Part shown: piece after piece, positions 5,632-61,872 of the stretch
How positions within the stretch are numbered: position 1 is the first letter of the stretch
Layout: each line of letters begins with the position of its first letter
NCBI GenBank assembly: GCA_004375895.1
Contig: SOJW01000068.1
Location: forward strand, 640-64,639
DNA from: Candidatus Stahliibacteriota bacterium
GTDB taxonomy: Bacteria; Hydrothermota; Tepidihabitantia; B3-TA06
Length of the DNA: 64,000 nucleotides
Direction: 5' to 3'
Position numbers and translations under genes: made by a program
The notes under the pieces: model-generated
The model's database searches: none
Told to the model about the DNA's origin: nothing
Seen by the model: only the letters and a program-made list of their open reading frames with translations

Positions 5632-5661
5632 GCGATCTTTTTGCCCGCGGCAAAAAGGAGC
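5632..5661 (+). repeat. Covarying hairpin element, copy 1
   Basis: GCGATCTTTTTGCC-CGC-GGCAAAAAGGAGC. Confidence 0.8.
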
Positions 5662-5759
5662 ATTAAGGTGAGGGCGTGCGGTCTTTTTGCGAAGCCAAAA
5701 AAACCTCTTGACAAAACACCTCATCTGGTTATCTTTAGGTAAGAGAATTGGAGGTAGAC

Positions 5760-6560
5760 ATGAAACGCTTAGTAGTAAAGAGAGGGTTGATGGTGAGCCT
5801 TGTGATCCTTTTGCTTGCAATCTCAGGTTGTGATCTATTCGAGGGCGTCAACAAGATCGAATACCCCTTCACCTATCGTTTATACGAAACCCCGGGTTCC
5901 CCTGTCTCGCTTATCGTTTCTATTGATTTCTTCGATGAAACCCCTGACTTAAGTGGCGTGGATCATCAATGGGAGCTTCGCGGCGATACGATCTGGATTC
6001 TCCTGAAGGGAAACAACGAGGAAGACGAGGTCTCGGGTTCACACTCCAACACCCTTCCTGTAGACGTAGGAGCCCTGGAGAACGGAAACTACACCCTTCT
6101 TTTCGAAGGCAAAGATGAAGAACAAGACGCCTTCGTGCTTGCGGTAAAAGACAGCATCTACCTGGTGGAAGGGGAAGGCGAGGAGGTGGCTCTGTATTAC
6201 GGGGTGGACACACTGCACCGGCTTTTCGAGAACATGCTGCTGCTGGAGATGGCGTACGACACTTCCCAGGCACCGTACAGTGATTCGCTCAAGGAGGCCC
6301 TCACAGCCCTGGGCGCAGCCGAGACCGCTCTTGAACCGGGCTTCTACTCTATCTTTTCTGTCGATTCACAAGGGGAGGTGTCCGGCAGTAGAGTATCTAA
6401 TCATCCATCGTTTATCACCCACTCAGCGCTTTTTGCATACGATGGAGATACGTTGGAATTAGAAGGTGTCTTCAAAACCTACCAAGATCAATTGGAGTAT
6501 CTGAGTCTACGTATGGGTAATGGATTTGACCTTCACAAGCCTCACATCTTCGGCGAGTAA
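5760..6560 (+). CDS. Hypothetical lipoprotein
   Basis: Signal peptide with lipobox LAISGC, SD GGAGG, promoter TTGACA-16-TATCTT at 5708-5735; no family recognised. Confidence 0.7.
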   Translation: MKRLVVKRGLMVSLVILLLAISGCDLFEGVNKIEYPFTYRLYETPGSPVSLIVSIDFFDETPDLSGVDHQWELRGDTIWILLKGNNEEDEVSGSHSNTLPVDVGALENGNYTLLFEGKDEEQDAFVLAVKDSIYLVEGEGEEVALYYGVDTLHRLFENMLLLEMAYDTSQAPYSDSLKEALTALGAAETALEPGFYSIFSVDSQGEVSGSRVSNHPSFITHSALFAYDGDTLELEGVFKTYQDQLEYLSLRMGNGFDLHKPHIFGE

Positions 6561-6576
6561 GTAATCAGAGAGTCGA

Positions 6577-7590
6577 CTATTCTGCGGAAGCCTCTTCCCA
6601 CTCAACGGCTTTAGCCGCCAGTTCCGCAATATTGATGTTCACAGGGCAGGCGCGACCGCACCGTCCGCAGCCAAGGCACTGGTAGGAGCCGAACACCTGG
6701 GGGAAGTAAGAAAACTTGTGCATAAGCCGCTGGCGCCAGCGCTCGCGGCCCGACGGCCTGGGGTTGTGGCCCGAGGTCTCCAGGGTGTAGCCCTCGTACA
6801 AACAGGAGTCCCACTGACGGGAACGCAGTCCGCGCGAACCCCTGGACGCATCGCTTACGTCAAAGCAGTGGCAGGAAGGGCACACAAACGCGCACGTCCC
6901 GCACCCGATGCACGGGTTGTGGACCCTGTCCCAGAAGTTACTGTCTACCATTAACTTAAGCTTGTCCGCGATTCCTTCAAAGTTGTACTTCTCAATCTTG
7001 TCTTCCGCCCGACGGCGGTCGGCCTCCAACTGGGAGACATCCCCGACTTCCTCAACGTCCAGACCTTGGATAGCTGCCTCCCCCTTCTTCGATGGCGTCT
7101 CTATAAGATACCCATCCTCCGTAGGATAGATGAAGATGTCCGCGCCCTCGGACTTGTAAGGAGAACCCTCCACCGAGGTGCAGAAGCATGAAGGCCACGG
7201 TTCGGAGCACGCGAGACCTACGATTAACGTTCGCTCAAACCGCTGCATAAAGTAGGGATCCTTATAGCCCTCCTCCCCCACCTGGTTGAACATCCGCTCC
7301 AGTTCACCGATTCCGGCAATGTCGCAGGGACGCACACCCCACAGAACGTTGGGTTTGACCTCATCCTTGGGAAGAATCGTCTTCTGGGCCTTGAAGTAAA
7401 ACAGCACCTCGTCTTGCGGAAAGAAGACCTCTTTGGGCGAGAAGTTACCCAGAAGAACGTTGGACTGCCATTGATCGAACGAGTCTAAGGCCCGGTAGAA
7501 GTATCGGTTATCCTCTTTGGTGAGACCCACGATCTGCCGATCCTTGGAAAGATGGTCGTAGAGGGTTTTGAGGACGGGAACTTTCTTCAT
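6577..7590 (-). CDS. 4Fe-4S dicluster protein, AsrA/FlxB/sulfhydrogenase-beta family
   Basis: GVRPCD, C.EPWPSCFC, CIGCGTCAFVCPSCHCF, RQWDSC, CLGCGRCGRACP. Confidence 0.88.
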   Translation of the reverse strand: MKKVPVLKTLYDHLSKDRQIVGLTKEDNRYFYRALDSFDQWQSNVLLGNFSPKEVFFPQDEVLFYFKAQKTILPKDEVKPNVLWGVRPCDIAGIGELERMFNQVGEEGYKDPYFMQRFERTLIVGLACSEPWPSCFCTSVEGSPYKSEGADIFIYPTEDGYLIETPSKKGEAAIQGLDVEEVGDVSQLEADRRRAEDKIEKYNFEGIADKLKLMVDSNFWDRVHNPCIGCGTCAFVCPSCHCFDVSDASRGSRGLRSRQWDSCLYEGYTLETSGHNPRPSGRERWRQRLMHKFSYFPQVFGSYQCLGCGRCGRACPVNINIAELAAKAVEWEEASAE

Positions 7591-8555
7591 AAGATAAACT
7601 CCTGGGGGTCTTCCTTCTTGTATGTAGCCAGTGGCGGCAGTGCCTCGGGGTCAACGCCTGCCTCGAACCCGAAACGCTCGCGCACCACAAGGTTCATCTT
7701 CCGGGTCAGCCATAACAATTTCACTCCCATAGGACACGCCTCCTCGCACGCACCGCAGTCTACGCACCGCCCGGCCTGGTGATAGGTTCGTATAAGCTGC
7801 CATATTGCGAGATCTGTGGGCTCCAACCCCTTGTCCACCCACTTTGGCTGGGTGATGTCTACAAAGCACTCGTCGCAGTTGCAGGTAGGACACGCCTGCC
7901 GGCACGCGTAGCACCGGATGCAAGCTGACATCTCAGACATCAGGTACTGGTAACGTTCCGGGGCAGGTTTGTTCTCGAATTCGCGGATCGAGTCGTAGCC
8001 GTCGTCTTCGACGTCCGGTTCTTTGATTGAATCCCCGACTACTACATCGGAGATAACCGGGGCATGATGTCTGCAAGCCACGCAGTTGGAGGGCATTAGG
8101 TCGAAACAGGAGATTTCTTTGGTTCCCTCGGTGGTCTCAAAAGACCACTTATCACCATTGGATGAAGCGGCAACAATTTCTCCCGCCTTTTCCCTTGCCA
8201 CCTGCCTTGACAGCATTCCCGGACAGTTAACCCCGATGATGAAGAGCCGGTCCCTATCTATTTGATTTTCCTTGAGTAAGGCCACGATCGAACGGGAGTC
8301 GCAACCCTTGGCCACTATGCCTATCTTGTGCGGGGTGTTACGGGTAGTACGATATCTTAAGAGATAATTTGCGAGATTTATGAGACCGAACGACGGCCAC
8401 ACGAGTTTATCGATATCCTCGACCTTGTCGATGAACACCGGCTGGGTGCGCATGGAGTTATCACCCTGGCCGTAGCCGATTACGAAATCTACCTTGCCTT
8501 CTTGCAATATCTTGCGCGCTTCCTCGCGGATGGAATTAGTGAGAGATTTAGACAT
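7587..8555 (-). CDS. FlxC/FdhB-like Fe-S protein (F420-reductase beta N-terminal-like plus 4Fe-4S dicluster)
   Basis: KIGIVAKGCDSRS, IIGVNC, CVACRHH, CIRCYACRQACPTCNC, GRCVDCGACEEACP; start at ATG 8555. Confidence 0.85.
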   Translation of the reverse strand: MSKSLTNSIREEARKILQEGKVDFVIGYGQGDNSMRTQPVFIDKVEDIDKLVWPSFGLINLANYLLRYRTTRNTPHKIGIVAKGCDSRSIVALLKENQIDRDRLFIIGVNCPGMLSRQVAREKAGEIVAASSNGDKWSFETTEGTKEISCFDLMPSNCVACRHHAPVISDVVVGDSIKEPDVEDDGYDSIREFENKPAPERYQYLMSEMSACIRCYACRQACPTCNCDECFVDITQPKWVDKGLEPTDLAIWQLIRTYHQAGRCVDCGACEEACPMGVKLLWLTRKMNLVVRERFGFEAGVDPEALPPLATYKKEDPQEFIL

Positions 8556-9165
8556 CACCCCGATTCCATTTTTCAAAGAAGCTCAACCCTTCAAATCTCT
8601 GCAAACCGGGATCGGGAATCAAAAAGCTCTTGTATACCTTTACCTGTTTCTTCTTCGTTTTTCTGAGACGTGCAAAGCGTTTTTCACGATGCGCCAGCTT
8701 GATCTTCCAGTTCCCTCCCATTCTCTTAACTATCCCATCTCTGGTTACTTGTCGTTTAGGAGGGTTGTAAATAAAGCATTCGAGTGTCTCAAGAACCTTC
8801 GAGGGGATTACCCAGTAGGTTCCTCCATGAATCTCACGCTCTTCCTCAGGTCTAAAAGCTTCTTCAATGAAAAAGAGGTAATAATAGTTTTCACGAGTGG
8901 TATACGACTTCAAGGTCAATGCTCCTATGCTGTGCCCCCTCCTGACGTGTGCCTTACCGTGGAACCTGGGCCGCACCACTAATTCTATCTCCAGATATTC
9001 AGATTTCCCTTTAACGTTACGTTTAATAATCCATGTACGCGGCCTCACTTCTCCATAAGGAAGGTACAACTGGCAACCCAGATTCAACAGCTTTAACATA
9101 ATAATAGTTTCAGCATAGTCAACTTCATTCATGTTATCTAGAATTGAACTCACGCTCTCATTCAC
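8548..9165 (-). CDS. Hypothetical basic protein, N-terminus resembles PD-(D/E)XK group-I-intron-like endonucleases with degenerate active site
   Basis: AETIIMLKLLNLGCQLYLPYG resembles E..v...Ll..G..V..P.G motif; canonical D and QxK not seen; overlaps both neighbours. Confidence 0.5.
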   Translation of the reverse strand: MNESVSSILDNMNEVDYAETIIMLKLLNLGCQLYLPYGEVRPRTWIIKRNVKGKSEYLEIELVVRPRFHGKAHVRRGHSIGALTLKSYTTRENYYYLFFIEEAFRPEEEREIHGGTYWVIPSKVLETLECFIYNPPKRQVTRDGIVKRMGGNWKIKLAHREKRFARLRKTKKKQVKVYKSFLIPDPGLQRFEGLSFFEKWNRGDV

Positions 9166-9589
9166 TTGGCCAATCCCTTTTCTTCAAAAACTGACTAGTA
9201 TCCTTAACCTGCTTGACTCCGTCGGTTACTTCCTTGACCACCTCGGCGAACTTACCGCCCTCGGCGGCAGAGACCCAGGAGAAGCGAACCCGGCCTTTTT
9301 CCAGACCCACGTATTCGAGCAAGTCGAGCATCGTTGCGAACTTGCGGCGGGCGTAGTAGTTGCCTTCAAGGTAGTGACAGTCCCCGGGATGACATCCGGA
9401 CACCAGCACCCCGTCAGCGCCTTCCTGAAGCGCTTTAAGGATAAACTGGGGGTTCACCCGTGCCGAGCAGGGCACGCGTAAGACACGCAGTGTCGTAGGA
9501 TACTGGATACGCGAGGTCCCTGCCAGGTCAGCACCGGCATAGGAGCACCAGTTGCATAAGAAAGCCAGGATTTTCGGATCATCGTTCAT
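9158..9589 (-). CDS. mvhD: MvhD/FlxD [2Fe-2S] subunit
   Basis: KILAFLCNWCSYAGADLAG, RVPCSARV, GCHPGDCHY, WVSAAEG. Confidence 0.93.
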   Translation of the reverse strand: MNDDPKILAFLCNWCSYAGADLAGTSRIQYPTTLRVLRVPCSARVNPQFILKALQEGADGVLVSGCHPGDCHYLEGNYYARRKFATMLDLLEYVGLEKGRVRFSWVSAAEGGKFAEVVKEVTDGVKQVKDTSQFLKKRDWPSE

Positions 9590-9591
9590 AT

Positions 9592-10806
9592 TCAATTTCC
9601 TCCGCCTGCCCGACCCGTGTTCTGGTTGTCGTGTTGGAACTTAGGCCAGGGGCTTGAGACCAGCCCTTTTGAATCGCTGTGAACCGCGTAAAAACAGCTA
9701 TCCAGTGACCCAACGTATACGGTCCCATCTGAGCCTATCGCTGGCGATGATTTTATCTCGCCGCCGATTTTATATCTCCACTTGCGTTCGCCTTCAGGCG
9801 TAAAAGCGTAAAGGTAACCTACCAGCTGCATGTTACTTAATTTCCTACCCACCCAGTCGTTCACCCCGAAGTATATGGTCCCATCCGAGCCTATGGTTGG
9901 AGTTGTTTCAACATTACCGTAACCAATTTCTTCGTCAAGTCTCCATTTTTCTGTGTAGTCCGAGTTCAGAACGCTGAAATGGTTCCCTCCTAAATATAGT
10001 GTACCGTCAGTATCTATTGCTGGCGAAGTCCACTCAGATGTCCAAACAACATATTGTAAAATGTCAAGCTTAAACTTAAGCTCCCCCTGGGGAGTAAACA
10101 CATAAAAACTACCCCCTTCCGTACAAAAACATATGTTGCCTTCACCATCTATCGCCATGGAAGAAATGGTGGTAGTGGACCACATACCAGGAACTTCAAA
10201 GCTCCATTTAAGATTACCTAGTGTATCTACTGCATAAATCATGTTACTAATACTGACATATAACGTGCCATCTAACCCTATCGCTGGAGGAAACATTGTC
10301 ATCCAACCTTTAATTTGTGATGATTCCCACTTCAGCTCTCCTTCAGGTGTGATTGCATAGAGACGACCACCGGTAGCCGCAACATATACAGTTCCATCAT
10401 GATCAATCGCAGGTGATGATAGTGTATAGTAGGTCTCACATTTCCATTTCAGCTTGCCTTCGGGTGAAATCGCATAGGTATAACCGTCCCACGGGTTGAT
10501 ATATACCGTTCCATCAGCCCCTATGGTAGGTGAAGCGACTATTTGCCCGTCAGTCTTAAAACTCCACTTGAGGTTCCCTTCAGGACTAAAGGCATACAGA
10601 CAACTGTCCATTGAGGTGACGTATACCGTTCCGTCATGTCCGATTGCCGGAGAAGACCTTATCGGGCCCCCGGTCTTGTACTTCCACTTCAGCGTACCCG
10701 GCCCCTCGGTTTTGCATTGAGTGGAGAGAAGTAAAACCACGCTGAAAAGTAAGGTGCTGAGAATCCTCAACTTACCTTTCAGTAACTGATGGTGTCGTCC
10801 ATTCAT
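9592..10806 (-). CDS. PQQ-binding-like beta-propeller protein, probable lipoprotein (paralog A)
   Basis: Repeated SSPAIG.DGTVY...LYA..P.G.LKW units; hydrophobic N-terminus ending TQC. Confidence 0.85.
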   Translation of the reverse strand: MNGRHHQLLKGKLRILSTLLFSVVLLLSTQCKTEGPGTLKWKYKTGGPIRSSPAIGHDGTVYVTSMDSCLYAFSPEGNLKWSFKTDGQIVASPTIGADGTVYINPWDGYTYAISPEGKLKWKCETYYTLSSPAIDHDGTVYVAATGGRLYAITPEGELKWESSQIKGWMTMFPPAIGLDGTLYVSISNMIYAVDTLGNLKWSFEVPGMWSTTTISSMAIDGEGNICFCTEGGSFYVFTPQGELKFKLDILQYVVWTSEWTSPAIDTDGTLYLGGNHFSVLNSDYTEKWRLDEEIGYGNVETTPTIGSDGTIYFGVNDWVGRKLSNMQLVGYLYAFTPEGERKWRYKIGGEIKSSPAIGSDGTVYVGSLDSCFYAVHSDSKGLVSSPWPKFQHDNQNTGRAGGGN

Positions 10807-10808
10807 AA

Positions 10809-11945: not shown

Positions 11946-11975
11946 TATCGACTCTCCTTTCCGAAGTGTAGCTCT

Positions 11976-12140
11976 TCACCCTCCCCCTTATCCCCTGCCC
12001 GACAGGGGCACGCTGTCCCGTCGAGGGAGGGGTGAAATTAAGGAAGCTTTTAGTCCTTGAACTAAAAGCCAACCGCCCCAATATCTCCCCCTTGATGGGG
12101 GAGAACGCCTCTCCGTAAGGAGAGGTAAGAGGGGGTGGAA
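11976..12140. repeat. C/G-run REP-like palindrome cluster (family also near 17841-17880, 26521-26575, 52188-52235, 53728-53770, 61741-61830, 62085-62125, 63085-63345)
   Basis: Recurring CCCCCTTGACGGGGGAGG..GGGGGTGA and TCACCCTCCCCC..TCCCC..AAGGGAGGGG motifs in intergenic gaps. Confidence 0.7.
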
Positions 12141-12166
12141 TGAAAAATCTTACCATCTCAAATATC

Positions 12167-44689: not shown

Positions 44690-45498
44690 ACGAAGGGATC
44701 CTCCAGATGCTTGATTCGATCCCAGGTAATCACAGGACCGTCCTTGCAGCAGAAGAGTTCTCCCAGCCGGCAGTGGCCGCACTTACCGAATCCACACGAC
44801 ATGTTCTTCTCCATCGAGAGGTAGATATCCTCATCTGCAAACCCCAGCTCAAGGAGCCTTTTGGTGGCAAACTTCATCATGACAGGCGGTCCGCAGGCAA
44901 CGGCAAGGCCGTCATTGGGTTTGAAGGGAAGATTGTCCAAAAGCACGGTCACAACGCCCACCTTCTCCTTCCAGTTCTTATCCCCCACGTCAACGCTGCG
45001 GCGTATCTCCACATTCTTGATCTTGCCCCACTCCTTGAACAGACGGTCGTAGACTATATCCCTGGGGGTGCGTGCCCCGTAGTAGAGATGAATCTTCTTG
45101 TATGCGGAGACGTTGTGCAGAAGTGCAAGGAAGAGCGATCGCAGCGGGGCAAGTCCGACGCCGCCGCCCACTATAAGCACGTGACGCCCTTCATAGCGGT
45201 CTGTCTCATAGGGTACGCCATACGGACCGCGGACAGCCAATGTGTCGCCAGGACGAACATCAAAGAGCTTCGAGGTGACGCGACCGACCTTCATTATCGT
45301 AACCTCCATACTCTCCTCCACGTAAGGAGAGGACGAGGGTGTAAATGGTGCCTCTCCAACCCCGGGGGCCGTCAGCTCGATAAACTGACCCGCGTGGAAT
45401 GAGAGCGCCGGCTTTGGCTCCAGCGTAAACGTGCGGATGGTCGGGGTCTCGATTATAACTTCCTTGACCTTAGCCTGGCGGGATTCGTAGGGATTCAT
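44686..45498 (-). CDS. FAD/NAD(P)H-binding subunit, AsrB/HydG/FlxA family
   Basis: GQF, RGPYG, GGGVGLAPLRS, CGPPVMM, MSCGFGKCGHC..CCKDGP. Confidence 0.92.
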   Translation of the reverse strand: MNPYESRQAKVKEVIIETPTIRTFTLEPKPALSFHAGQFIELTAPGVGEAPFTPSSSPYVEESMEVTIMKVGRVTSKLFDVRPGDTLAVRGPYGVPYETDRYEGRHVLIVGGGVGLAPLRSLFLALLHNVSAYKKIHLYYGARTPRDIVYDRLFKEWGKIKNVEIRRSVDVGDKNWKEKVGVVTVLLDNLPFKPNDGLAVACGPPVMMKFATKRLLELGFADEDIYLSMEKNMSCGFGKCGHCRLGELFCCKDGPVITWDRIKHLEDPFV

Positions 45499-46517
45499 AG
45501 CGCCCTCAGGACCTCACGAATGTCTATCTTACCCGTGCACCCGGCGATACAGCGCCCGCAGCCGGTGCACGCGGAAACCTTGAAGTTGCGCGGAAAGGCC
45601 ATAAACTTGCACTCGAAACGGTTACGCAGCCGGTGAGAAAAATGTGCAAGCGGGTTCACGCCACCGCCTACCCTGCCATAGGCGGCGTGGTAGCACCAGT
45701 CAAGCACCTTGACACGCTCAACACCCTTACCGACAGGGATATCATAAAGCAGGAAGCAGTAGCACGTCGAACAGATCCGCTCGCAGGCCTGGCAGTCAAC
45801 ACAGTTGGCCAGGGCCTTGGCCCAGAACGTGGTGTCAAGTTGATGCTCAATCCGATCGGGAAGGTCCGGGGCAAACTCATCGGGGTTGACCTTGGCAAGC
45901 TTGCGCTCGGCGTCGGTACGATGTTTGTCGCGCTTCTTAATCTCTTTTTTATCCACCTCCTTGAGAAGGTCCCCCATCTTCTCAACGATCTCTTCCCCCT
46001 TTGCGGAAAGCACATCCACGATTATCCCCTCCTCGCCAAAGGATAGGTTCAGGTCTCCACCCCAGACAGAGTAAGGTTTGCCGCCGATCCGCAGGCAGAA
46101 GCAGGTATCTGCAGGCTCAGGGCAATCCACGGTAACAACGAGATACTTCTCCCGGCGTTCCTTGTAGAACGGGTCCTCGAGCACGCCCTTAAGGTAGACG
46201 TTATCCTGAATCTCAATAAGCGAGCGGATGTCGCAGTCCTTCGCTCCCACTATCACCTTAGGTTTGATGTCCTTGGAGAAAAGCTGCGGGAAGCTTGCCA
46301 CCCGTTCACGTGAGCCTAAGAAAAATTCCTTCAAAGGCTCTACCGGTCGAACCATCTTGAGGGCTTGGTGAAGTTCCTCTGCTGCAATCTCCTCCTCGCG
46401 CCAGAGCTCGTAGATGGCGTGACGGTCAAACACGCGCGGGTAGTAGGTTTCGCCATATTTTGCCAACTGGGTATAGAACGCAGGAATTGAGGCTAGGGGT
46501 AAAAAAAGAGACCTCAT
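45495..46517 (-). CDS. AsrA/HydB/FlxB-family 4Fe-4S subunit, first gene of the hydrogenase operon
   Basis: GAKDCDI, C.EPADTCFC, CVDCQACERICSTCYCF, CTGCGRCIAGC. Confidence 0.9.
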   Translation of the reverse strand: MRSLFLPLASIPAFYTQLAKYGETYYPRVFDRHAIYELWREEEIAAEELHQALKMVRPVEPLKEFFLGSRERVASFPQLFSKDIKPKVIVGAKDCDIRSLIEIQDNVYLKGVLEDPFYKERREKYLVVTVDCPEPADTCFCLRIGGKPYSVWGGDLNLSFGEEGIIVDVLSAKGEEIVEKMGDLLKEVDKKEIKKRDKHRTDAERKLAKVNPDEFAPDLPDRIEHQLDTTFWAKALANCVDCQACERICSTCYCFLLYDIPVGKGVERVKVLDWCYHAAYGRVGGGVNPLAHFSHRLRNRFECKFMAFPRNFKVSACTGCGRCIAGCTGKIDIREVLRAL

Positions 46518-46525: not shown

Positions 46526-46553
46526 ACTATACACAGAAATCAGGGCTTGTCAA
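46526..46553 (-). promoter_or_regulatory. Promoter of hydrogenase operon, probably leaderless
   Basis: TTGACA-16-TATAGT-TCGCGGCA-ATG. Confidence 0.72.
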
Positions 46554-46631: not shown

Positions 46632-46662
46632 GCGATCTTTTGTGCGCCAGCACAAAAGGAGC
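46632..46662 (+). repeat. Covarying hairpin element, copy 2
   Basis: GCGATCTTTTGTGC-GCCA-GCACAAAAGGAGC. Confidence 0.8.
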
Positions 46663-50643: not shown

Positions 50644-50695
50644 TTGACTTTTACCCCTTCTCGGCATACAATTTAGCTAAAAATTGGAGGAAAAC

Positions 50696-52186
50696 ATGGC
50701 CGAAGAGTACAAGAATTTTATCGGGGGAGAATGGGTTAAGTCCAAGTCAAATAAGACTTTCGAGAATCGCAACCCTGCCGATACCAGTGACCTTGTGGGA
50801 ACGTTTCAGCTTTCTTCACGAGATGACGTAGATGCGGCAGTTACAGCCGCCCAGGCCGCATTTCCAAATTGGCGCGACACCCCGGCCCCGGAGCGCGCGG
50901 ATTATATGTATCGTGTTGCCAATAAGTTACGCGAACGCAAGGAGGAGATTGCGAAGCTCATGACCCGTGAGATGGGCAAGGTGATTGCCGAAACCCGGGG
51001 CGACATGCAGGAAGGCATCGACACCGCCGACTTCGCCGCAGGCGAGGGCCGCCGCATGCACGGCCAAACCGTCCCCTCCGAGCTGCGCAACAAGGCGGCT
51101 TACGTTATCCACAGACCAATGGGCGTGTGGTGGCTGATTACCCCGTGGAACTTCCCCATCGCCATCCCCACCTGGAAGACGTTCCCCGCCATAACCACCG
51201 GTAATACGATAGTTATCAAGCCAGCCACCGACACTCCTGCCTGCACCGCAAAGCTCATGGAGATTCTTGACTCCGCCGGCATCCCCAAGGGCGTTATCAA
51301 CTACGTGACCGGCTCGGGCCGCATTGTGGGCGAACACCTCATCAACCACCCGGACATCAAGGGCATAAGCTTTACCGGTTCGAGTGAGGTCGGTAAGCGG
51401 ATCGCGGAGGTCACCGGCAAGACCCTGAAACGGTGCTCACTAGAGCTGGGCGGCAAGAACGCGCAGATCGTGATGGCGGACGCAAACCTCGAACTGGCGT
51501 TGGACGGCGCTCTGTGGGGCGCGTTCGGAACCACCGGTCAGCGCTGCACCGCGACCTCGAGGATCATTGTGCAGGAAGGCGTGCACGACGAGTTCCTGGC
51601 CGAGCTGGTCAAGCGCGCCAAGGCGCTCAAGGTAGGCAACGGTCTGGACGAGTCGGTCGAGATGGGTCCACTGGTGTCCAAGGCTCAGCAGGAGACCGTG
51701 GCAAGCTACGTGAAGATCGGTCTTGAGGAAGACAAGGCCGAACTGGTCTGCGGCGGACATGCTCTCACCGACGGGGATTGCGCCAAGGGCTTCTTCTTCG
51801 AACCCACGATATTTGATAAGGTTACGCCCGATATGCGCATCGCCCAGGAGGAGATCTTCGGGCCGGTGCTTTCGATTCTTACGGTAAAGAGCCTGGATGA
51901 GGCGATTGAGGTTCTGAACGGCACGGTTTACGGGCTTTCGTCCTCGATTTACACCCAGGACGTGAATTCTGCGATGCGGGCAATTGAGCGCATCGAGGCG
52001 GGCATTACCTACGTGAACGGCCCGACCATCGGCGCTGAGTGCCACCTGCCGTTCGGCGGCGTAAAGGAAACCGGCAACGGACATAGAGAAGGCGGCTGGA
52101 CAGCCTACGAGATCTTCACCGAAATGAAAACCGTCTATATCGACTACAGCGGGAAGTTACAACGAGCTCAGATTGATAATAAATAG
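50696..52186 (+). CDS. NAD(P)-dependent aldehyde dehydrogenase
   Basis: ITPWNFP, IKPA, FTGSSEVG, LELGGKN, GQRCTA, EEIFGPV, PFGG.K..G. Confidence 0.95.
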   Translation: MAEEYKNFIGGEWVKSKSNKTFENRNPADTSDLVGTFQLSSRDDVDAAVTAAQAAFPNWRDTPAPERADYMYRVANKLRERKEEIAKLMTREMGKVIAETRGDMQEGIDTADFAAGEGRRMHGQTVPSELRNKAAYVIHRPMGVWWLITPWNFPIAIPTWKTFPAITTGNTIVIKPATDTPACTAKLMEILDSAGIPKGVINYVTGSGRIVGEHLINHPDIKGISFTGSSEVGKRIAEVTGKTLKRCSLELGGKNAQIVMADANLELALDGALWGAFGTTGQRCTATSRIIVQEGVHDEFLAELVKRAKALKVGNGLDESVEMGPLVSKAQQETVASYVKIGLEEDKAELVCGGHALTDGDCAKGFFFEPTIFDKVTPDMRIAQEEIFGPVLSILTVKSLDEAIEVLNGTVYGLSSSIYTQDVNSAMRAIERIEAGITYVNGPTIGAECHLPFGGVKETGNGHREGGWTAYEIFTEMKTVYIDYSGKLQRAQIDNK

Positions 52187-52240
52187 TCCCCGCCCCCTTT
52201 GTCCCCCTCCACCAAGGAGGGGGATGGAGCGAAGCGACCA

Positions 52241-52269
52241 GCGATCTTTTTGCGTTAGCAAAAAGGAGC
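52241..52269 (+). repeat. Covarying hairpin element, copy 3; homology to copy 5 extends to ~52347
   Basis: GCGATCTTTTTGC-GTTA-GCAAAAAGGAGC. Confidence 0.85.
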
Positions 52270-52422
52270 ATGAAGGCAAGCTGCAAAGAGCGCAAATCGA
52301 TAACAAGTAACGGAATCTATCCGCAGATTTCGCAGATGACGCAGATTTTGAAGGCCGCCCGAAAGGGCGGCCTTTATTATTACCATTACTTGACAACCAA
52401 TAAAAAGAAAATAGTATATGGG

Positions 52423-53577
52423 ATGGATAAACTACACGAAGCTATCAGAAAATTGGCTATCAAGAAGGGTGTAAAGCCTGTACCTATTGAAATTCCAGAT
52501 GAAGCGGAATATATAATATACCTTGTACAAGGATTCTTGGTTGAGGCTCCCCAGTTCTTCAGCCACGAAGAATCCACCAAAGCTATATTATGTAGATTTG
52601 ATCATCTAGAATTCAAAGACAACTCAAATATCAAGGAGAAGATTAAACAAGAATTAGCTTTTTCGTGGATGAAATGGAATAGAATAGACTCTAAGGCTAC
52701 GCTCCAACTCAATGAACCTGTCGTCTTACTGCTTAATCGGGATCGTAATGATCCTGAAAGACGATTGCATACTTATGAATTTGCTCAGCAACTGCTAGAC
52801 TATTTTGCCTTCACTAGCAGACTTGATTTTCATTCTGTTCCATCTCTAACAGAAACAGATTTTATGTCTGGTTTAGCCGCAGGTGTCATTGTTACAAAAA
52901 ACGATGTTAAACCTATTTATCCCCCTAAGGAGAAATTCCCCTTTGCTGTGGTGGAAACTCGAAACTATGACCTTACTGATTACTTGAATGATTCAGAAGT
53001 AATCAAAGCATTCTGGCGAGCCATTCATTGGAGAAGACGCGCCAAATTAACCTCTTCTCTTATTGACAAATTCCTTTTCCTTTGGATATCTTTGGAATCT
53101 ACTTTGCCCGAAGAATGCTACCAGTCAAGTTGTATCGAAAGCAAAGTTGGGGTATTGTGGGGCGAAATTCCTAGAAGACTCCGTTCTCAATTAAGTAAAA
53201 AACAAAGAAAAATCATCCGCAATGTCATCAAAGGACGTAAAACTACAGTCTCCGACATTGCAGCAAAAATTAACCGGAAATGGAGAAACGAAGTTGTTCA
53301 CGTTGGAGAAACTGATTTCGCCTCTGACTCACAAAAAACCCTTGAAATCATTAAGGCCATAAGTACTCTAAACATAATCAACGCAAGATGCTGCCACCTT
53401 CTCACTTTCGCTATCCAAAAGAATGTTTCAACTCTACCAGAGGTCTGGGAAAAAACGGTATTAAATTACATATTTAGAGAAATAGATACAAACTCAGAAT
53501 TCATAACAAGACTCCCAACGGAAAACCTCGACGAAAAACATGTTGAAGCAACATTATTAGAAAACCCTCCTATATAA
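52423..53577 (+). CDS. AT-rich HEPN-domain protein (ApeA-like), leaderless start at 52423
   Basis: DKFLFLWISLE helix and RNEVVH (Rx4H) motif; promoter TTGACA-16-TAGTAT at 52390-52417. Confidence 0.7.
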   Translation: MDKLHEAIRKLAIKKGVKPVPIEIPDEAEYIIYLVQGFLVEAPQFFSHEESTKAILCRFDHLEFKDNSNIKEKIKQELAFSWMKWNRIDSKATLQLNEPVVLLLNRDRNDPERRLHTYEFAQQLLDYFAFTSRLDFHSVPSLTETDFMSGLAAGVIVTKNDVKPIYPPKEKFPFAVVETRNYDLTDYLNDSEVIKAFWRAIHWRRRAKLTSSLIDKFLFLWISLESTLPEECYQSSCIESKVGVLWGEIPRRLRSQLSKKQRKIIRNVIKGRKTTVSDIAAKINRKWRNEVVHVGETDFASDSQKTLEIIKAISTLNIINARCCHLLTFAIQKNVSTLPEVWEKTVLNYIFREIDTNSEFITRLPTENLDEKHVEATLLENPPI

Positions 53578-53596
53578 AGCTCTATCTACATACTTT

Positions 53597-53626
53597 GCGA
53601 TCTTTTTCGTGAAACGAAAAAGGAGC
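53597..53626 (+). repeat. Covarying hairpin element, copy 4
   Basis: GCGATCTTTTTCGT-GAA-ACGAAAAAGGAGC. Confidence 0.85.
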
Positions 53627-53634
53627 GTCAAGAA

Positions 53635-53662
53635 ACTATACTCCTCCCCTGCCCTATGTCAA
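53635..53662 (-). promoter_or_regulatory. Promoter-like sequence facing antisense into the HEPN gene
   Basis: TTGACA-16-TATAGT with no co-directional gene downstream. Confidence 0.55.
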
Positions 53663-53779
53663 GTGTTAGGCAAGGGGTTTAAGTGACGCTCCTCGCAACG
53701 AGGCGTTCGTTGCACTCCATAGACCTCTCACCCCTCCCCCTATCCCCCTCCACCAAGGGAGGGGGATATAATCTGCGGT

Positions 53780-53968
53780 TTATTCTTCCCTGTGTTTGTC
53801 GGCAATCAGTTCGCCGTTAGCACCCACGTTCTCCGGCGGGTTCTCGCGAATCAATACTGTGATGTGCTCGATCTCGTAAATCTTGACCGCGACATCAGTT
53901 AGTTCTTTGACCAGCCGCCTTTTCTTCTCGATATCAATCGGCGGGCCGTCTATCTGGATTAAAGGCAT
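53780..53968 (-). CDS. 4-oxalocrotonate tautomerase family protein
   Basis: Pro-1 (MPLIQI), KKRRLVKELT, ENPPENVG. Confidence 0.9.
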   Translation of the reverse strand: MPLIQIDGPPIDIEKKRRLVKELTDVAVKIYEIEHITVLIRENPPENVGANGELIADKHREE

Positions 53969-54661: not shown

Positions 54662-54676
54662 TTGAGACTCTCCTCG

Positions 54677-55579: not shown

Positions 55580-55647
55580 CGCGTTGCCTCCTTATGGATT
55601 AACATTATTGATTTATAACCGGTTATCCCCAGGTGTCAAGCTACCTC
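55560..55647 (-). repeat. 88-bp direct repeat (promoter + SD + first codons of DUF2156 gene), partner 56947-57034
   Basis: First 58 bp differ at one position; offset 1387 bp. Confidence 0.9.
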
Positions 55648-55671
55648 GAAGCTCACCCCACCAGAAAACCA

Positions 55672-56865: not shown

Positions 56866-56912
56866 CTTTGCTCCTTTCTAATAAACCAATAGAACCATAA
56901 GGTTCCAGGGGT

Positions 56913-56966
56913 CACGTCTCTATCTGTAACTTCGATTGGGTTTTGATTCGGAAACTCCGGATGCAT
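56913..56966 (-). pseudogene. Frameshifted 5' remnant of a DUF2156 paralog
   Basis: MHPEFPNQKP(+1)IEVTDRDV versus MHPEFPNFKPIELEDRDF. Confidence 0.7.
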
Positions 56967-57161
56967 CGCGTTGCCTCCTTATGGATTAACATTATTGATT
57001 TATAGGCGTATATTCTCCACTGTCAAGCCACCTCACCTTCCTTGACCTCCCTAATCCAGGCTGTGATGAACAGATACCCGGCAGGTGTTACCTGATAAAG
57101 AACGCCAGCACCAATCCACCTGATATTCCCATACTAATCCAAAGCCACAACGTGAAACCTC

Positions 57162-57479
57162 CTAGGCCTTTGCCAGCGCGGCCGCGTAGCTTTTGCGGAC
57201 GTAATCCATGATCTCTTCAAGCTCAGAGCAGTCCGCAACCACCACCTGCATCCAGCCGCCGATTGTTTTGCCTTTTGACTCGAACGCAAACGCCTCGTGC
57301 TCGGCGGCAAGGCTTTCTCTTGATTCATTGTCTAGCTGAGTGATGACAACGCTGTCGTCAACAAAAAATGCAAACAGCTTGCCTTTGAGCATGTAAGCCA
57401 GACACCCGAACATGAACCTGGTGGTAACGTGCGGCCAGGAAAGGACCTCTGACTCAAACGCCAGCCGCAGATCCTTCAT
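57162..57479 (-). CDS. TfoX/Sxy N-terminal-like protein
   Basis: RFMFGCLAYMLKGKLFAF, WMQV, YVRKSY. Confidence 0.75.
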   Translation of the reverse strand: MKDLRLAFESEVLSWPHVTTRFMFGCLAYMLKGKLFAFFVDDSVVITQLDNESRESLAAEHEAFAFESKGKTIGGWMQVVVADCSELEEIMDYVRKSYAAALAKA

Positions 57480-57544
57480 GTCCGATTCGGAGTAGTACTT
57501 GATGGTTTATCTTTTCGTGACCACAGAATCTGTCTATCCACGAT

Positions 57545-57988
57545 TCAGCCGTTGATTTGCTTCTTCAGTGCCTCAAAACACACGTTCCACATCTTCTCGA
57601 ACCATTGCCGTGCCTCTTCCCACTCTTCTGAGCTTCTCCAGCCGGAGTGGATGAGTTGGACCTCGGTAAATCCATCACCTGGAATAAAGAAGACCACCAC
57701 GTGGGTGAGTGGATCGGCGGCATTCATGAAGTCATTGTACTGCTTCGGCCCTTTCCATTCAAAGGAAAGGAACTTGTCCTCTTTGATTGCGGTTATCCTG
57801 CAGCCGATGGTAGAATCGTACTGCTTGTCCTCTGGATTCCAGAAGAGCTCGTATTTTCCGCCTACACGCGGCTCAACGTCCGCCTCTTCCGTAAGCCAGC
57901 TTTCAAGCTTCTCGTTGACGGTGAGCATCTCGAAAGCCTGATGCACATCGCAGTTCAGCATAAGTGAACGATGGATGATCTTATCCAT
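57545..57988 (-). CDS. SRPBCC/AHSA1 domain protein
   Basis: AFEMLT..EKLESW, EPRVGGKYEL, FLSFEW, TEVQLIHSGW. Confidence 0.85.
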   Translation of the reverse strand: MDKIIHRSLMLNCDVHQAFEMLTVNEKLESWLTEEADVEPRVGGKYELFWNPEDKQYDSTIGCRITAIKEDKFLSFEWKGPKQYNDFMNAADPLTHVVVFFIPGDGFTEVQLIHSGWRSSEEWEEARQWFEKMWNVCFEALKKQING

Positions 57989-57998
57989 ACGCTCCTCC

Positions 57999-58577
57999 TT
58001 ACTTTCCCGGCCACTCTGTGGATTCAGGCTTCTCTTTCGGGCTGGTGTAGACTTCAATCGTGTTGCCCTGAGGGTCCATCACAGAAAATCCCCAGTAGCT
58101 ATCCTGCCGCCACTGTGGATTATCAGAAAAGGTCTTGACCCCGGCATCCTTGAGACGCTTTACGGTTTCGGCAAAGTCTTCCTCCGGTATCTGGATGGCC
58201 CATGAGGTTACGTGCAGGCTGCCGCCATCGTAGCCGGGCTGCCACGCCCAATCCTTGAAGACGGGTGCTTCCTGCCCGGAGTAGAAGAACATGAGGTAGA
58301 CACCCTCGCATGGATAGGATAGATACCCGAACTGCTTTTCGTTGAAGAAAGCCTGCTCCTGCATCCCCAACAGATCGGAGTAAAAGTGCCTCATCGCCTC
58401 TATGTCGCTGCACAGGGAAAAGATGAATCGCACGTTGATCTTGGGCACCTTCTTCTCGGGAGCTTTTTCGGCTTCTGCCATATTGTTCTCCTCTGGTTTA
58501 GGTGTTTTACGCAACAGACAACAGCCTTGCATAAGTGACGCAAGCAAAACTACTATCAGAACCAACCTGAATTTCAT
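57999..58577 (-). CDS. VOC/glyoxalase family protein with lipoprotein-like signal
   Basis: LMQGCC; MRHFYSDLLG, YWGFSVMDPQGNTIEV. Confidence 0.85.
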   Translation of the reverse strand: MKFRLVLIVVLLASLMQGCCLLRKTPKPEENNMAEAEKAPEKKVPKINVRFIFSLCSDIEAMRHFYSDLLGMQEQAFFNEKQFGYLSYPCEGVYLMFFYSGQEAPVFKDWAWQPGYDGGSLHVTSWAIQIPEEDFAETVKRLKDAGVKTFSDNPQWRQDSYWGFSVMDPQGNTIEVYTSPKEKPESTEWPGK

Positions 58578-58638
58578 ACACTATCCTCCTTAGGGATCAG
58601 GGAACCTTTGTTCATCCATAGCTTCTCGTCTCTCCAGT

Positions 58639-59913
58639 TCAACCACCCTCCCCCATCGCTTTCTTTACACGGGCAATGCCGCGGTCGGCCTTCTCAACTT
58701 CGTGCTTTGCACCAATCTTTACATACATCTCACGAGCACGTTGAAAATAGGATAGGGCTTCTTTGAACTGCTTCAATGTCTCATAAACCACACCGATGTT
58801 GTTGAGTTGGTTAGCCTGGACTTCTGGATTCCCGATTTGTTCAGCGAGTTTTAAGGAACGCTCATGATACTCAAGCGCCTTCTCTGTATCCCCCAAGTCA
58901 CCGTAGACATTGCCAATGTTGCCGAGGGCGTTAGCCTGAATCTCTAGGTTCCCGATCTTCTTCGCTATCTTCAGCGCCTTCTGGTGATAATCAAGCGCCT
59001 TCTTTGGCTCGCCCAGGGTCTGATAGACAAGGCCAATGTTGCCAAGTTGGTGGGCTTGGCCCTCGAGTCTGCCGATCTTTTTGTTGATCTCCAGCGCCCT
59101 CTCGTGAAACTCAAGCGCCTTCTGTGGCTTGCCTAAGGTTTGATAGACAAGGCCGATGTTGCCGAAGGCATTAGCTTTGCTTTCAAGTCTGCCGAGCTTT
59201 TCTTCTATTTCTAAGACGCGATTGTAGAACTCAAGCGCCTTTTCTGGCTCGCCCAAGGTTTGGTAGACATTGCCGATGTTGCCGAGGACACTAGCCTGAA
59301 TTTCAAGGTTGCCGATCTTTTCTGCTACCTCCAACGCCTTCTGATGATACTCCAGCGCCTTGTGCGGCTCGCCCAGGGTTCGATAGACAAGGCCGATGTT
59401 CCCGAGGGCGGCGGCCAGCGCTTCTTCGATTTTAGCATTCTCGGCGATGCGGATCATCTCAAGGAAGGTCTGCTCGGCGTCCTTCCTGTCGCCTTTATCA
59501 AATTGGCTCAAACCAATCAGGTTCAAAAGCGCGCAGCGCTCGTTGTCATCTGTCTCTAAGTTAAAGACTTCTTGGAACTTATCAATCGCCTCGGCATGGT
59601 GATACTTGTCCATTGCATCAAGGCCCTCGTCAAGGAGTTTGGCCTTGTCGGGTTCGGTAGTTTGGGGCAGACCATCAAGGTAAACGGGTAAATTCCTGAA
59701 CTTCTCTTCCAAGATTCTTTCAAATTTCTGCTCTAGGTCTGTAGTTATATCTTGCTTTAGTTTTTCTTGCTCTTCCCTCCTGCGGACCTCCTCTTCCTTC
59801 CGTTTCTTTTTCTTTCTGCATTCTTTAACGAGAAACCAAATGAACCATCCAATTCCGACAGCGGCGCCAACACCCCCTAAGGCTTTAAGGAAAGTCACCC
59901 AAAAGGGACTCAT
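58639..59913 (-). CDS. Membrane-anchored TPR protein with 40-aa (120-bp) tandem repeats
   Basis: Repeated A..LGNIG.VY.TLGEP.KAL.YH..AL; leaderless promoter TTGACA-16-TATGAT at 59919-59946. Confidence 0.88.
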   Translation of the reverse strand: MSPFWVTFLKALGGVGAAVGIGWFIWFLVKECRKKKKRKEEEVRRREEQEKLKQDITTDLEQKFERILEEKFRNLPVYLDGLPQTTEPDKAKLLDEGLDAMDKYHHAEAIDKFQEVFNLETDDNERCALLNLIGLSQFDKGDRKDAEQTFLEMIRIAENAKIEEALAAALGNIGLVYRTLGEPHKALEYHQKALEVAEKIGNLEIQASVLGNIGNVYQTLGEPEKALEFYNRVLEIEEKLGRLESKANAFGNIGLVYQTLGKPQKALEFHERALEINKKIGRLEGQAHQLGNIGLVYQTLGEPKKALDYHQKALKIAKKIGNLEIQANALGNIGNVYGDLGDTEKALEYHERSLKLAEQIGNPEVQANQLNNIGVVYETLKQFKEALSYFQRAREMYVKIGAKHEVEKADRGIARVKKAMGEGG

Positions 59914-60000
59914 ATCACATCATACCGTTGACGCTCGCTCTGTCAAGGGATTTACCCCACGAACTCGCTGCCTCTTCGCGGGCTCTATCTAATCCTCCCG

Positions 60001-60879
60001 TTAGAATCTTTCAAGTATCTCTTTCTTCTTCGCCTCGTACTCCTCGTTGGTGATTAAATCATCCTCAAGCATCTTCTTGAGCGTTTTGAGCCTGGCAACC
60101 AGGGCATCGGTTTCGTCTCCAGTCTCAGGCTTGGGTTGTTCCCCTGAAGGCTGTTGCTGAGGGGTCTGACCGACCTGATCGCTCTCCATGGGCTTGCCCA
60201 GAACCTCCTGGAACTTATCCATCTCCTCCTTTGGGATGGAGATGCGCTTGATGTTGAAGTTCACTATCTCGACCCCGTAGCGGCCAAACTCGCGGGATAT
60301 AGCGCTGCCGGTAAAGGTGGAAAGCTCGTTCAGCTGGGCGTTCGCCTGGAAAACGGAAGTCTTCTGCTTCTCGAAGAACTCGGCCATCGCATCGGAAAAC
60401 TTTTGGTCTATCTCGCCGATAAAGTGTTCCTCTATCCGGGCTGTATCAGTCATCTTGAGTGTCCCGACTATCTGAGTAACAAAGCTGCGTGAATCGGTAA
60501 TTCGCAGACCCCAACGTCCATAGGCCCTGACATTGACAGGGTAGTTGTATACCGAATCAATGATGGGTATGGGGGTCTTGGTTCCCCATTTAAGGTCACG
60601 TCTCACCGTCTTGTTGACAAACCAGACCTCTGCGGTAAAAGGGGTATCTCCGCCGAAAGGCAGGTTGACCAGTCGGTGAAGCAGGGGCAGGTTGCCTGTG
60701 GAAAGGGTGTGGGTGCCCGGACCGAATACGTCAAGGGCCTCTCCCCTCTTGACAAAAACCGCCTCCTGGCTCTGGCTCACTACAAGCTGGGAGCCCAGTC
60801 TGAGCTGTTCACCTGGATACCGCCATACAAGTATTTCCTCAGACGGGGCATCAAACTTTATTCTATCTACGACTGCCAC
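60001..60879 (-). CDS. SPFH (virion core/YdjI-like) protein with C-terminal SHOCT domain
   Basis: LVVSQSQEAVFVK.G, FGPGTHTL.T.NLP, PFTAEVWFVN, WGT..PI; L..LKKMLEDDLITNEEYEAKKKEIL. Confidence 0.85.
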   Translation of the reverse strand: MAVVDRIKFDAPSEEILVWRYPGEQLRLGSQLVVSQSQEAVFVKRGEALDVFGPGTHTLSTGNLPLLHRLVNLPFGGDTPFTAEVWFVNKTVRRDLKWGTKTPIPIIDSVYNYPVNVRAYGRWGLRITDSRSFVTQIVGTLKMTDTARIEEHFIGEIDQKFSDAMAEFFEKQKTSVFQANAQLNELSTFTGSAISREFGRYGVEIVNFNIKRISIPKEEMDKFQEVLGKPMESDQVGQTPQQQPSGEQPKPETGDETDALVARLKTLKKMLEDDLITNEEYEAKKKEILERF

Positions 60880-60906
60880 TTGCTACCTCCTGGAACCAAA
60901 AGCTCA

Positions 60907-60970
60907 CCCGTAACACCCCAAAAACATACCCAAAAGATACCCAAAAGATACCCAAAAGATACCCAAAAGA
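60907..60970 (+). repeat. CCCGTAACAC followed by 11-bp CCCAAAAGATA tandem array
   Basis: Directly visible. Confidence 0.85.
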
Positions 60971-60986
60971 AGAGTTACCATCCCGG

Positions 60987-61436
60987 TTAATACCAGGGTT
61001 TGGGCGCTGCAATGATCTGGATCAGGGTGGTGATCGCCAGAATAACAACGATCAGCATTATCCCCCCGGAAATCCCAATCGCTATCCAGGCGAAAACCTT
61101 GCCCTTCGGCTCTTTCTTGAGCGCTATGATCCCAACGATAAGGGCAGGGATAAAGGTGATAATAACCGCGAGTCCGACGAGCGCCAGAACGAACGCTGTA
61201 ATCGAGAGTGTTTGAGAGGTTAATCCTGCCCCGACTGCAGGTGCTGGTACTATCTCTTGCTGGGTTGCTTGAGGTGAAGTGGTGGGTGTTACGGGAGGTG
61301 GTGTTACGGGTACGGGTGTTACGGGAGTGGGTGTTACGGGTGCGGGTCTTACGGGCTCCGCCCCGCAATGAGGACAGTAGGTTGCATCAGGGGGAAGCTC
61401 TGAGCGGCAGTACTCGCAAATCCTTCTATCACTCAT
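60987..61436 (-). CDS. Zinc-ribbon + Pro/Thr linker + DUF4190-like membrane protein
   Basis: CEYC..CPHCG, PVT repeats, SITAFVLALVG..GIIALKK..G...AWIAIG. Confidence 0.82.
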   Translation of the reverse strand: MSDRRICEYCRSELPPDATYCPHCGAEPVRPAPVTPTPVTPVPVTPPPVTPTTSPQATQQEIVPAPAVGAGLTSQTLSITAFVLALVGLAVIITFIPALIVGIIALKKEPKGKVFAWIAIGISGGIMLIVVILAITTLIQIIAAPKPWY

Positions 61437-61842
61437 CCTCCCTCCCTTGCAAACCCAACAAGCTGAGATTTGCGTCTTCCTTCTTGAAATCCTGCTTCAT
61501 AGTTAATCTCCATGAATTTGAAACTTACGAAGTTCCTATTAACAATACTCCTTGGCAATTAATTGTCAAGCTAAGCCGACCCTCAAACGGTTGCAAAACA
61601 ATTCGAGAGAAGCATTTAAAATCTGCAGATTGAACCTCGTTTCACTCATTTCCCTTCGGTAGAACTCCTTGCAGTCGTTCTCCTTCGGAACGCAGATTTC
61701 GCGGATTAAGAAGGGGCGACAGCCCCTTCTTCCATTACTACCTCCCCCTTGACGGGGGAGGATAAAGGAGGGGGTGATTCATAGGTTTCACCCTCCCCCT
61801 ACCCCCTCCCGTCAAGGGAGGGGTAATTGGGGCGAAGCCCCT

Positions 61843-61872
61843 GCAATCTTTTTACCGAGGGTGAAAAGGAGC
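61843..61872 (+). repeat. Covarying hairpin element, copy 5
   Basis: GCAATCTTTTTACC-GAG-GGTGAAAAGGAGC. Confidence 0.75.

Follow-up and report, generated by a model that had tools for sequence, protein, structure and literature searches.

A lineage-restricted family of extragenic hairpins with a constant, asymmetric closing helix in Candidatus Stahlbacteria

The DNA analyzed here (the window; 64,000 nucleotides forming part of contig C57 of a 2.195-Mb assembly with 75 contigs and 52.9% G+C, labelled G000) holds five copies of a short hairpin whose inner stem changes from copy to copy and stays paired. The question raised is what kind of element this is, and whether it is read as DNA or as RNA. 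A preliminary description placed all five copies on the + strand, with inner stems GCC/GGC, GTGC/GCAC, GC/GC, CGT/ACG and ACC/GGT around 3-4 nt loops, and these were recovered: a covariance model built from genome-wide copies and run on the window returned exactly the same five matches, with E values of 1e-8 to 1e-11 (Table 1). The last of the inner stems is extended by a T.G pair, and the outer part, described as invariant, is so in four copies, the fifth reading GCAATC. The hairpin is interpreted, with slightly more confidence than doubt, as a lineage-restricted extragenic palindromic DNA element, a working unit similar to the repetitive extragenic palindromes (REPs) and bacterial interspersed mosaic elements (BIMEs) of other bacteria but with its own architecture.

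Size, structure and conservation of the hairpin family

The count of five proved to be an effect of the window, as about 140 copies are present per genome. The motif reads yT-GCGATC-T(3-6)-(variable stem, 3-4 nt loop)-A(3-6)-GGAGC-ATTwa, where GCGATC is the head and GGAGC the tail. Across the 2.195-Mb assembly, 102 copies were found with a strict regular expression, 139 single-hairpin copies with a one-mismatch search followed by a folding filter, and 143 with the covariance model; the pattern read backwards, used as a control, gave 0 matches in 41 genomes. Eleven genomes in four genera make up the family. Model counts were 139 to at least 150 in each of the congeners G001, G002, G004 and G005 (at least 150 in G001), 19 in the fifth congener (G003), 52-62 in genus g3 and 14-17 in genus g2, with 0 matches in genus g4 and in 30 genomes from other families of the class. 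With the exact pattern, a scan of GTDB at one genome per species returned almost only WOR-3/Candidatus Stahlbacteria metagenome-assembled genomes (MAGs), plus single strays. The hairpin family is restricted to one family of uncultured WOR-3/Stahlbacteria, with ~140-150 copies per genome in most congeners. A viral origin was rejected, the single IMG/VR match being homologous to a chromosomal locus on contig C32. That match (L136, IMGVR_UViG_3300024429_000021, 4900-5100) is labelled viral, yet it is homologous to G000 C32:5600-5771, adjacent to a gene for a REP-associated tyrosine transposase (RAYT), one hairpin copy included, and could represent the border of a prophage or a wrongly classified contig.

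In a logo of the flanks of 118 copies (yT, GCGATC ... GGAGC, ATTwa), conservation reaches ~95% at T(-1) and A(+1), which could pair, the 10 nt upstream of the head are pyrimidine- and T-rich, and a CT dinucleotide is conserved just before the head. Inward from the C-G pair, the stem measures 8-10 bp (mode 9), made up of 3-6 bp of T-run/A-run plus 3-5 variable pairs, and is closed by a loop of 3 nt in 85 copies and of 4 nt in 41. About 15 long forms hold, within the closing helix and ahead of the variable hairpin, one or two extra hairpins of the form ACCC-loop-GGGyACArGT, a module found essentially only within the motif. One orthologous copy differs between G000 and G001 by an 18-nt interior duplication, and at the site orthologous to copy 3 of the window G004 has a short form where G001 and G005 have a long one with two hairpins. 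What stays constant is therefore the closing helix, which is asymmetric: T-GC-[GA/T]-CTTTT ... AAAAG-[GA]-GC-A.

Among 68 copies of modal length, 98.3% of cells were paired, versus 82.0% after shuffling and 45-59% when partners were slid, although the percentage paired is inflated by the pre-selection of copies for a folding interior; double-sided changes numbered 125 versus 31.8 expected. The outermost pair, which is G-C in 106 copies, C-G in 13 and mixed in 2, lay outside the selection criterion, and its covariation is for this reason unaffected. The T/A run also shows switches from T-A to C-G and from T-A to A-T. Watson-Crick pairing never occurs in the internal module, in which G,A,T face G,A. 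The preliminary description had drawn this module as tandem G.A pairs with one unpaired T; folding programs preferred a T.G pair with a 2x1 internal loop, and the two are equally possible registers. By inspection the module did not resemble a kink-turn, which has a bulge of three nucleotides 5' of tandem G.A/A.G on the same strand: here GA directly follows GC with a single T behind.

Conservation in place was assessed on the 25 copies for which both 40-nt flanks align ungapped to another Stahlbacteria genome. In the flanks of these orthologous pairs 188 of 1775 sites differ (10.6%), versus 0 of 413 in the closing helix and 2 of 314 in the hairpin interior (2 of 727 over the whole hairpin), and the GA/T versus GA module shows 0 changes over 275 outer positions. 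Every copy is thus under purifying selection in situ, a conserved island within a diverging spacer, and together with covariation that includes the outermost pair this bore out the earlier proposal that the structure is selected. The strict orthology criterion leaves out a minority of sites (#48, #50, #104 and #129) with an interior that is wholly different yet fully paired, which, judged from the alignments, looks like replacement and not gradual change. A general mechanism diversifying a hypervariable interior was also considered, and was dropped because the interior is nearly invariant over the 25 strict pairs.

The two strands of the hairpin differ in the loops and mismatches they carry. 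On the GCGATC strand there are 48 C-GNA-G triloops versus 7 complements, loop ends are G..A in 71 copies versus T..C in 9, and mismatched stem pairs are G.T in 16 cases versus A.C in 5. C-GNA-G and C-GNNA-G are mini-hairpin DNA motifs that are far more stable as DNA than as RNA and require a C-G closing pair (PMC13037366, PMC3201870); the literal sequences GCGTTAGC, CCGAAGG and GCGAAAGC are present among the copies. For each of the five window copies, both parameter sets gave a better fold to the + strand than to the - strand. Relative to transcription, and with genes called by a crude open reading frame (ORF) picker, the orientation in tandem spacers is sense for 37 copies and antisense for 36. 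Measured at 5, 10 and 20 kb, neither GC skew nor gene-strand bias showed any link with the strand of the motif, GC skew in a 75-contig MAG being a weak proxy for replication direction. Because the loops are of mini-hairpin DNA types and the orientation ignores both transcription and GC skew, the sequence evidence favors a DNA-level hairpin on the GCGATC strand over an RNA one. Of the two possibilities first offered, a protein-bound RNA motif and a single-stranded DNA (ssDNA) site, the second fits the loop types and the 37 to 36 split better and the first fits them less well.

Copies lie almost all between ORFs, in either orientation. Two copies sharing one spacer are arranged head-to-head in 11 cases, in tandem in 4 and tail-to-tail in 1; the head-to-head pairs frequently bracket an ordinary terminator between convergent genes, and the sequences enclosed by them are unrelated and 37-154 nt long. 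A terminator-like hairpin stands 6-16 nt before the head in ~24% of copies and on the tail side in 7-10%, and in 9% of copies an inverted GTAG REP is located 10-13 nt away from the head, versus 1.3% at random spacer positions. Within 150 nt, 42 sigma-70-like promoters are directed away from the motif and 7 into it; on the tail side, -35 boxes begin 8-12 nt off in nine copies. Stop codons at most 10 nt from the motif face the tail in 22 cases and the head in 2 (p = 4e-5), and beyond 10 nt tail-first and head-first copies are equally frequent.

Hairpins of a second family, GGGGTCCCC (cGGGGTCCCC-variable stem-GGGGT), occur 5-11 nt past the tail in about a quarter of copies. This second family shows clean presence or absence of 43-56 nt between close genomes (L103:1374 versus G000 C13:910; G001 C4:165015 versus G000 C67:46867), so it seems from these comparisons to have been recently mobile and to target the AT-rich trailer of the hairpin studied here. 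The simplest reading is that the true unit is ~45-50 nt long, composed of leader, hairpin and AT-rich trailer, with neighbors packing against its ends. Just past the end of the window, at G000 C57:67052 and 67272, a block made of a GTGG-REP and the hairpin has undergone a ~220-nt tandem duplication, in which the newer hairpin has a perfect stem (GTCCC-GAA-GGGAC) and the older one is mismatched (GTCCC-AAA-GAGAC) and shared with another MAG.

Possible origins and functions of the hairpin

The folded form of the proposed palindromic DNA element would be single-stranded or extruded DNA of the GCGATC strand, chosen because the purine mismatches and the loops C-GNA-G and C-GNNA-G are found on it alone. 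A protein would use the constant closing module as its recognition surface, and a stable hairpin would be all that is required of the variable top. With its AT-rich tail ATTwa, reversed TAAT, a tail-first copy could overlap the end of a gene harmlessly and provide the stop codon. Further copies would arise slowly within larger spacer blocks and not by frequent cut-and-paste. For this element we infer both a reader protein and a function.

Gain and loss of copies were followed in ~1.4 Mb of sequence (0.39 Mb of G001, ~0.64 Mb of WOR-3 loci and 0.34 Mb of G003, the last with only 4 mapped sites and flanks 70-79% identical). About 30% of the examined G001 copies had no identical counterpart in G000, though the flanking genes are 90-99% identical. 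Indels at mapped sites were 60-100 nt blocks that include neighboring hairpins, or local block duplications.

Several results weigh against the palindromic-element interpretation. No clean filled/empty site pair for the hairpin alone was found among ~100 mapped orthologous sites and ~130 flank mappings. The 122 copies compared have ~100 distinct interiors, and pairs with identical interiors (17 versus 8.2 expected, p = 0.04) are slightly above expectation, so there is no dominant master sequence, unlike in active REPIN (REP doublet) populations. The assembly encodes four Y1/HUH proteins with RAYT motifs (C32:5853-6336, C59:12251-12770, C5:12027-12522 and C5:94395-94950), and the hairpin flanks 0 of these 4. 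They are instead flanked by REPs of the classes GTAGGGGCCGACC..., GTAGCGCGGGC..., a GGTAGGC... repeat and GGAGTG doublets. Likewise, eight type-b RAYT loci in relatives have GT(A/G)G- or GGAGTG-headed REPs alongside and never the hairpin. ORFs bracketed by motif pairs were ordinary genes (TrmO, nitroreductase, Usp, ICMT-like, lipoate ligase, GH114), with no nuclease or transposase among them. Neither the RAYT flanks nor the enclosed ORFs yielded a protein partner, and a co-distributed recombinase or HUH enzyme, which the preliminary description suggested looking for, did not emerge, as none is specifically tied to the hairpin and the four Y1/RAYT genes carry other REP classes. To these points are added the weakness of GC skew as a proxy and the crude gene calls noted above, and the strong in-situ conservation, which would also fit a host RNA function. 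As a separate observation, four RAYTs, each with its own REP class, in 2.2 Mb is an unusually rich complement outside Proteobacteria.

An unlikely but possible alternative is that the hairpin is a non-autonomous element mobilized by a resident HUH/Y1 RAYT, most plausibly of type b (G000 C5:12027-12522 and C59:12251-12770), that would read the closing module on ssDNA. In 10 of the 11 family genomes the state of the type-b RAYT follows copy number: the gene is present in G000, G002, G004, G005, G007 and G010, which hold 52 to at least 150 copies, occurs in truncated form in G003 (19 copies) and is lacking in G006 and G009 (14-17) and in G008 (0). Hairpins with a strand-specific mismatch are typical Y1 substrates, the E. 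coli RAYT cleaves at CT (PMC3479197) and a CT is conserved before the head here, and the wholly different, fully compensated interiors at some orthologous sites look as if those sites had been refilled. However, G001 has no type-b RAYT despite its at least 150 copies, the co-distribution is confounded by phylogeny (11 genomes, 4 genera), and the hairpin has no unpaired GTAG-like guide. The REPs found at every examined RAYT locus, the lack of a clean insertion polymorphism among the ~100 mapped sites and the missing master sequence also argue against RAYT mobilization.

More doubtful is an RNA-level cis element, in which a protein-bound hairpin in the 3' untranslated region or between cistrons would stabilize or process transcripts and the tail-first position after stop codons would be functional. 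The REPs of E. coli stabilize upstream mRNA. Folding programs predicted stable RNA hairpins for both strands, and the 22 tail-first copies within 10 nt of a stop codon and the strong in-situ conservation are also consistent with such an element, but the even split of orientations relative to transcription, repeated beyond 10 nt of stops, is not. Moreover, a tail-first transcript is the complement, with pyrimidine mismatches and UNC loops, so that the selected purine mismatches and GNA loops would be absent from it. Nearby promoters are directed away from the motif, and about a quarter of copies have a terminator-like hairpin immediately before the head, where little transcription of the GCGATC strand is thus to be expected. 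RNA versions of the loop classes are also markedly less stable (PMC13037366). A scan of the window with Rfam 15 at gathering thresholds returned tRNA-Lys only, and permissive scans of two copies gave chance matches only, in agreement with the preliminary description, in which no family was recognized; the hairpin is neither a terminator nor a known Rfam RNA family. Sequestration of a Shine-Dalgarno sequence was rejected as well, since the tail is Shine-Dalgarno-like but few copies have a start codon at a working distance.

We hold it similarly doubtful that the hairpin is not selfish and is either a host-maintained site on DNA for a structure-specific protein, which would read it as an extruded or single-stranded mini-hairpin by way of the invariant closing module, marking transcription-unit boundaries (e.g., in a topological or transcription-replication role), or the substrate of a non-RAYT hairpin enzyme. 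If either were true, the hairpin would represent a new class of chromosomal ssDNA signal with a constant base and a free top.

It is very improbable that the hairpin is a structure-specific recombination site like the attC sites of integrons, at which gene cassettes are exchanged. The architecture is alike, with constant paired ends, asymmetry and a variable, sometimes branched center, and copies 3 and 4, in direct orientation, flank a gene that is replaced by unrelated ones in G001 and G005. Contrary to the attC comparison made at first, copies are scattered singly and in both orientations over all contigs, mostly beside ordinary housekeeping genes, and form no arrays. The corresponding islet of G001 has the motif on one side only, no attC R'/R'' consensus was seen by inspection, and no integrase was seen beside the copies, although no search aimed at integrases was made.

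An unusual intrinsic or bidirectional transcription terminator is hardly credible: despite a stable hairpin followed by an A/T-rich stretch and a mild enrichment in convergent spacers (9.8% of which hold a copy, versus 6.2% of tandem and 5.2% of divergent ones), the stem itself contains the T and A runs and has no T-tract behind it, a terminator scan flagged none of the five window copies, orientation bears no relation to transcription, there are copies in divergent spacers and copies immediately ahead of promoters, and ordinary terminators adjoin many copies, so that the first judgment that this is not a standard terminator was correct.

Window copies and their surroundings

The window copies occupy several kinds of spacer (Table 1). 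The promoters to either side of copy 1 are both directed away from the hairpin. A degenerate sixth copy, which abuts a -35 box at 5708, was found by eye and falls under the model threshold.

Table 1. Positions of hairpin copies and neighboring features in the window
Feature	Position	Strand	Sequence or content	Model score	Setting
Copy 1	5632-5661	+	GCGATC-T5-GCC-CGC-GGC-A5-GGAGC	51.4 bits, E 1.4e-11	Divergent spacer between class II aminoacyl-tRNA synthetase gene 4140-5579 (-) and ORF 5748-6560 (+)
Degenerate sixth copy	5678-5705	+	GCGGTCTTTTTGCGAAGCCAAAAAAACC	Under threshold	
Copy 2	46632-46662	+	T4-GTGC-GCCA-GCAC-A4	46.5 bits	79 nt upstream of -35 box of minus-strand gene 45495-46517
Copy 3	52241-52269	+	T5-GC-GTTA-GC-A5 = GCGTTAGC mini-hairpin	Match	54 nt past stop of aldehyde dehydrogenase gene 50684-52186
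Copy 4	53597-53626	+	T5-CGT-GAA-ACG-A5	49.3 bits	19 nt past stop of variable 378-aa gene 52441-53577
Copy 5	61843-61872	+	GCAATC-T5-ACC-GAG-GGT-G-A4-GGAGC, one T.G pair	48.7 bits	
Aldehyde dehydrogenase 3'-end relic	52275-52310	+	Encodes GKLQRAQIDNK*, as does 52151-52186		5 nt after copy 3 tail
Second aldehyde dehydrogenase 3'-end relic	61878-61913	+			5 nt after copy 5 tail
Heptamer runs	52318-52346; 61924-61966		CGCAGAT-like (atccgcagatttcgcagatgacgcagatt)		After the relics
Putative variable islet	52187-53792		378-aa protein, no Pfam match		Between copies 3 and 4
Strong sigma-70-like promoter	5586-5613	-			Serves tRNA-synthetase gene (ATG 5579)
Strong sigma-70-like promoter	46526-46553	-			Serves Fer4 gene (46517)
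Predicted promoter	53635-53662	-	11/12 consensus		Start at copy 4 edge

The further sequence shared by copies 3 and 5, already pointed out in the preliminary description, is real and consists of aldehyde dehydrogenase 3'-end relics. The first relic shows 10 differences from the gene end (last 11 codons and stop) with an identical peptide. For the gene-end duplicates beside copy 3 and one G001 copy, an origin as long target duplications was rejected because their differences leave the peptide unchanged; this silence points to allelic replacement by recombination. It looks as if the 3' end of the gene was replaced by a diverged allele and the block was then copied to the second locus. A similar gene-end relic stands beside one G001 copy (C4:~180 kb), and a systematic scan of G000 for further gene-end duplicates beside copies revealed no other case. 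The CGCAGAT-like heptamers that follow the relics also occur after gene ends in G001 and G005.

At the position equivalent to 52187-53792, G001 and G005 carry unrelated genes of similar total length, with the aldehyde dehydrogenase and GNAT acetyltransferase flanks kept, and the segment thus has the appearance of a small variable islet. Transcription from the predicted promoter bordering copy 4 would enter the 378-aa gene in the antisense direction. The other two promoters end 7-9 nt before the ATG, which suggests leaderless or near-leaderless mRNAs for the tRNA-synthetase and Fer4 genes.

Significance and comparison with known systems

The family offers a clear case of selection on the secondary structure of chromosomal DNA, with a fixed asymmetric base and a free top. 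It provides a defined bait for a reader protein (top-strand versus bottom-strand versus duplex oligonucleotide), and the covariance model flags spacer boundaries and the built-in stop codon, which aids annotation of Stahlbacteria genomes.

Mini-hairpin DNA of the types GCGNAGC and GCGNNAGC has the same loop classes, the same C-G closing pair and the same one-strand reading. It is known from the origins of phages G4, St-1 and alpha3, from ssiA/RepB' and from the virion RNA polymerase (vRNAP) promoters of phage N4 (PMC13037366). Each of those is an individual functional site on the ssDNA of a phage or plasmid, whereas the present family has ~140 chromosomal copies, no replication-strand bias and an added invariant closing module. 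With integron attC sites the likeness is that recognition would be structural, through constant asymmetric paired ends, an unpaired base and a variable center; the hairpin differs in having no arrays, no uniform orientation and, by inspection, no attC consensus (GTTRRRY).

Hairpin repeats with GGGGTCCCC or GTAG heads share spacers with the hairpin and often abut it directly. The GGGGTCCCC family differs in its clean 43-56 nt presence or absence, of which the hairpin shows none. The hairpin likewise does not behave as a MITE (a miniature transposable element with inverted repeats) or as a derivative of the insertion sequences IS200/IS605, as the ~100 sites include no clean filled/empty ones and the indels are larger composite blocks.

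The closest likeness is to the REP/BIME and RAYT (TnpAREP) system of Gammaproteobacteria (Nunvar 2010, PMC2817692; Messing 2012, PMC3479197; Bertels and Rainey 2011, PMC3116915). In both, a hairpin of 30-40 nt whose palindrome is kept by compensatory changes is present outside genes in more than 100 copies, both form clusters with inverted partners and variable linkers beside terminators, and both are lineage-specific and vertically persistent. Binding by the E. coli RAYT needs a strand-specific mismatch inside the REP stem (PMC3479197), and the invariant GA/T versus GA module is such a mismatch, with a comparable role in binding that we infer. The doublets have no conserved spacing and no dominant master sequence, so they are not REPINs. 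REPs are GC-rich, near-identical palindromes, whereas the stem of the hairpin is an A/T run with a nearly randomized top, in a family that lacks a master sequence and includes two- and three-hairpin forms. The hairpin also lacks two defining features of REPs. It has no unpaired 5' GT(A/G)G head, as GCGATC pairs with GGAGC-A and the conserved ends are mutually paired, and no RAYT gene is flanked by it in inverted orientation. A good understanding of REP-type repeats is confined to Proteobacteria, in which they are defined by the GTAG head and the flanking RAYT; the hairpin is equally abundant in an uncultured phylum and breaks both rules.

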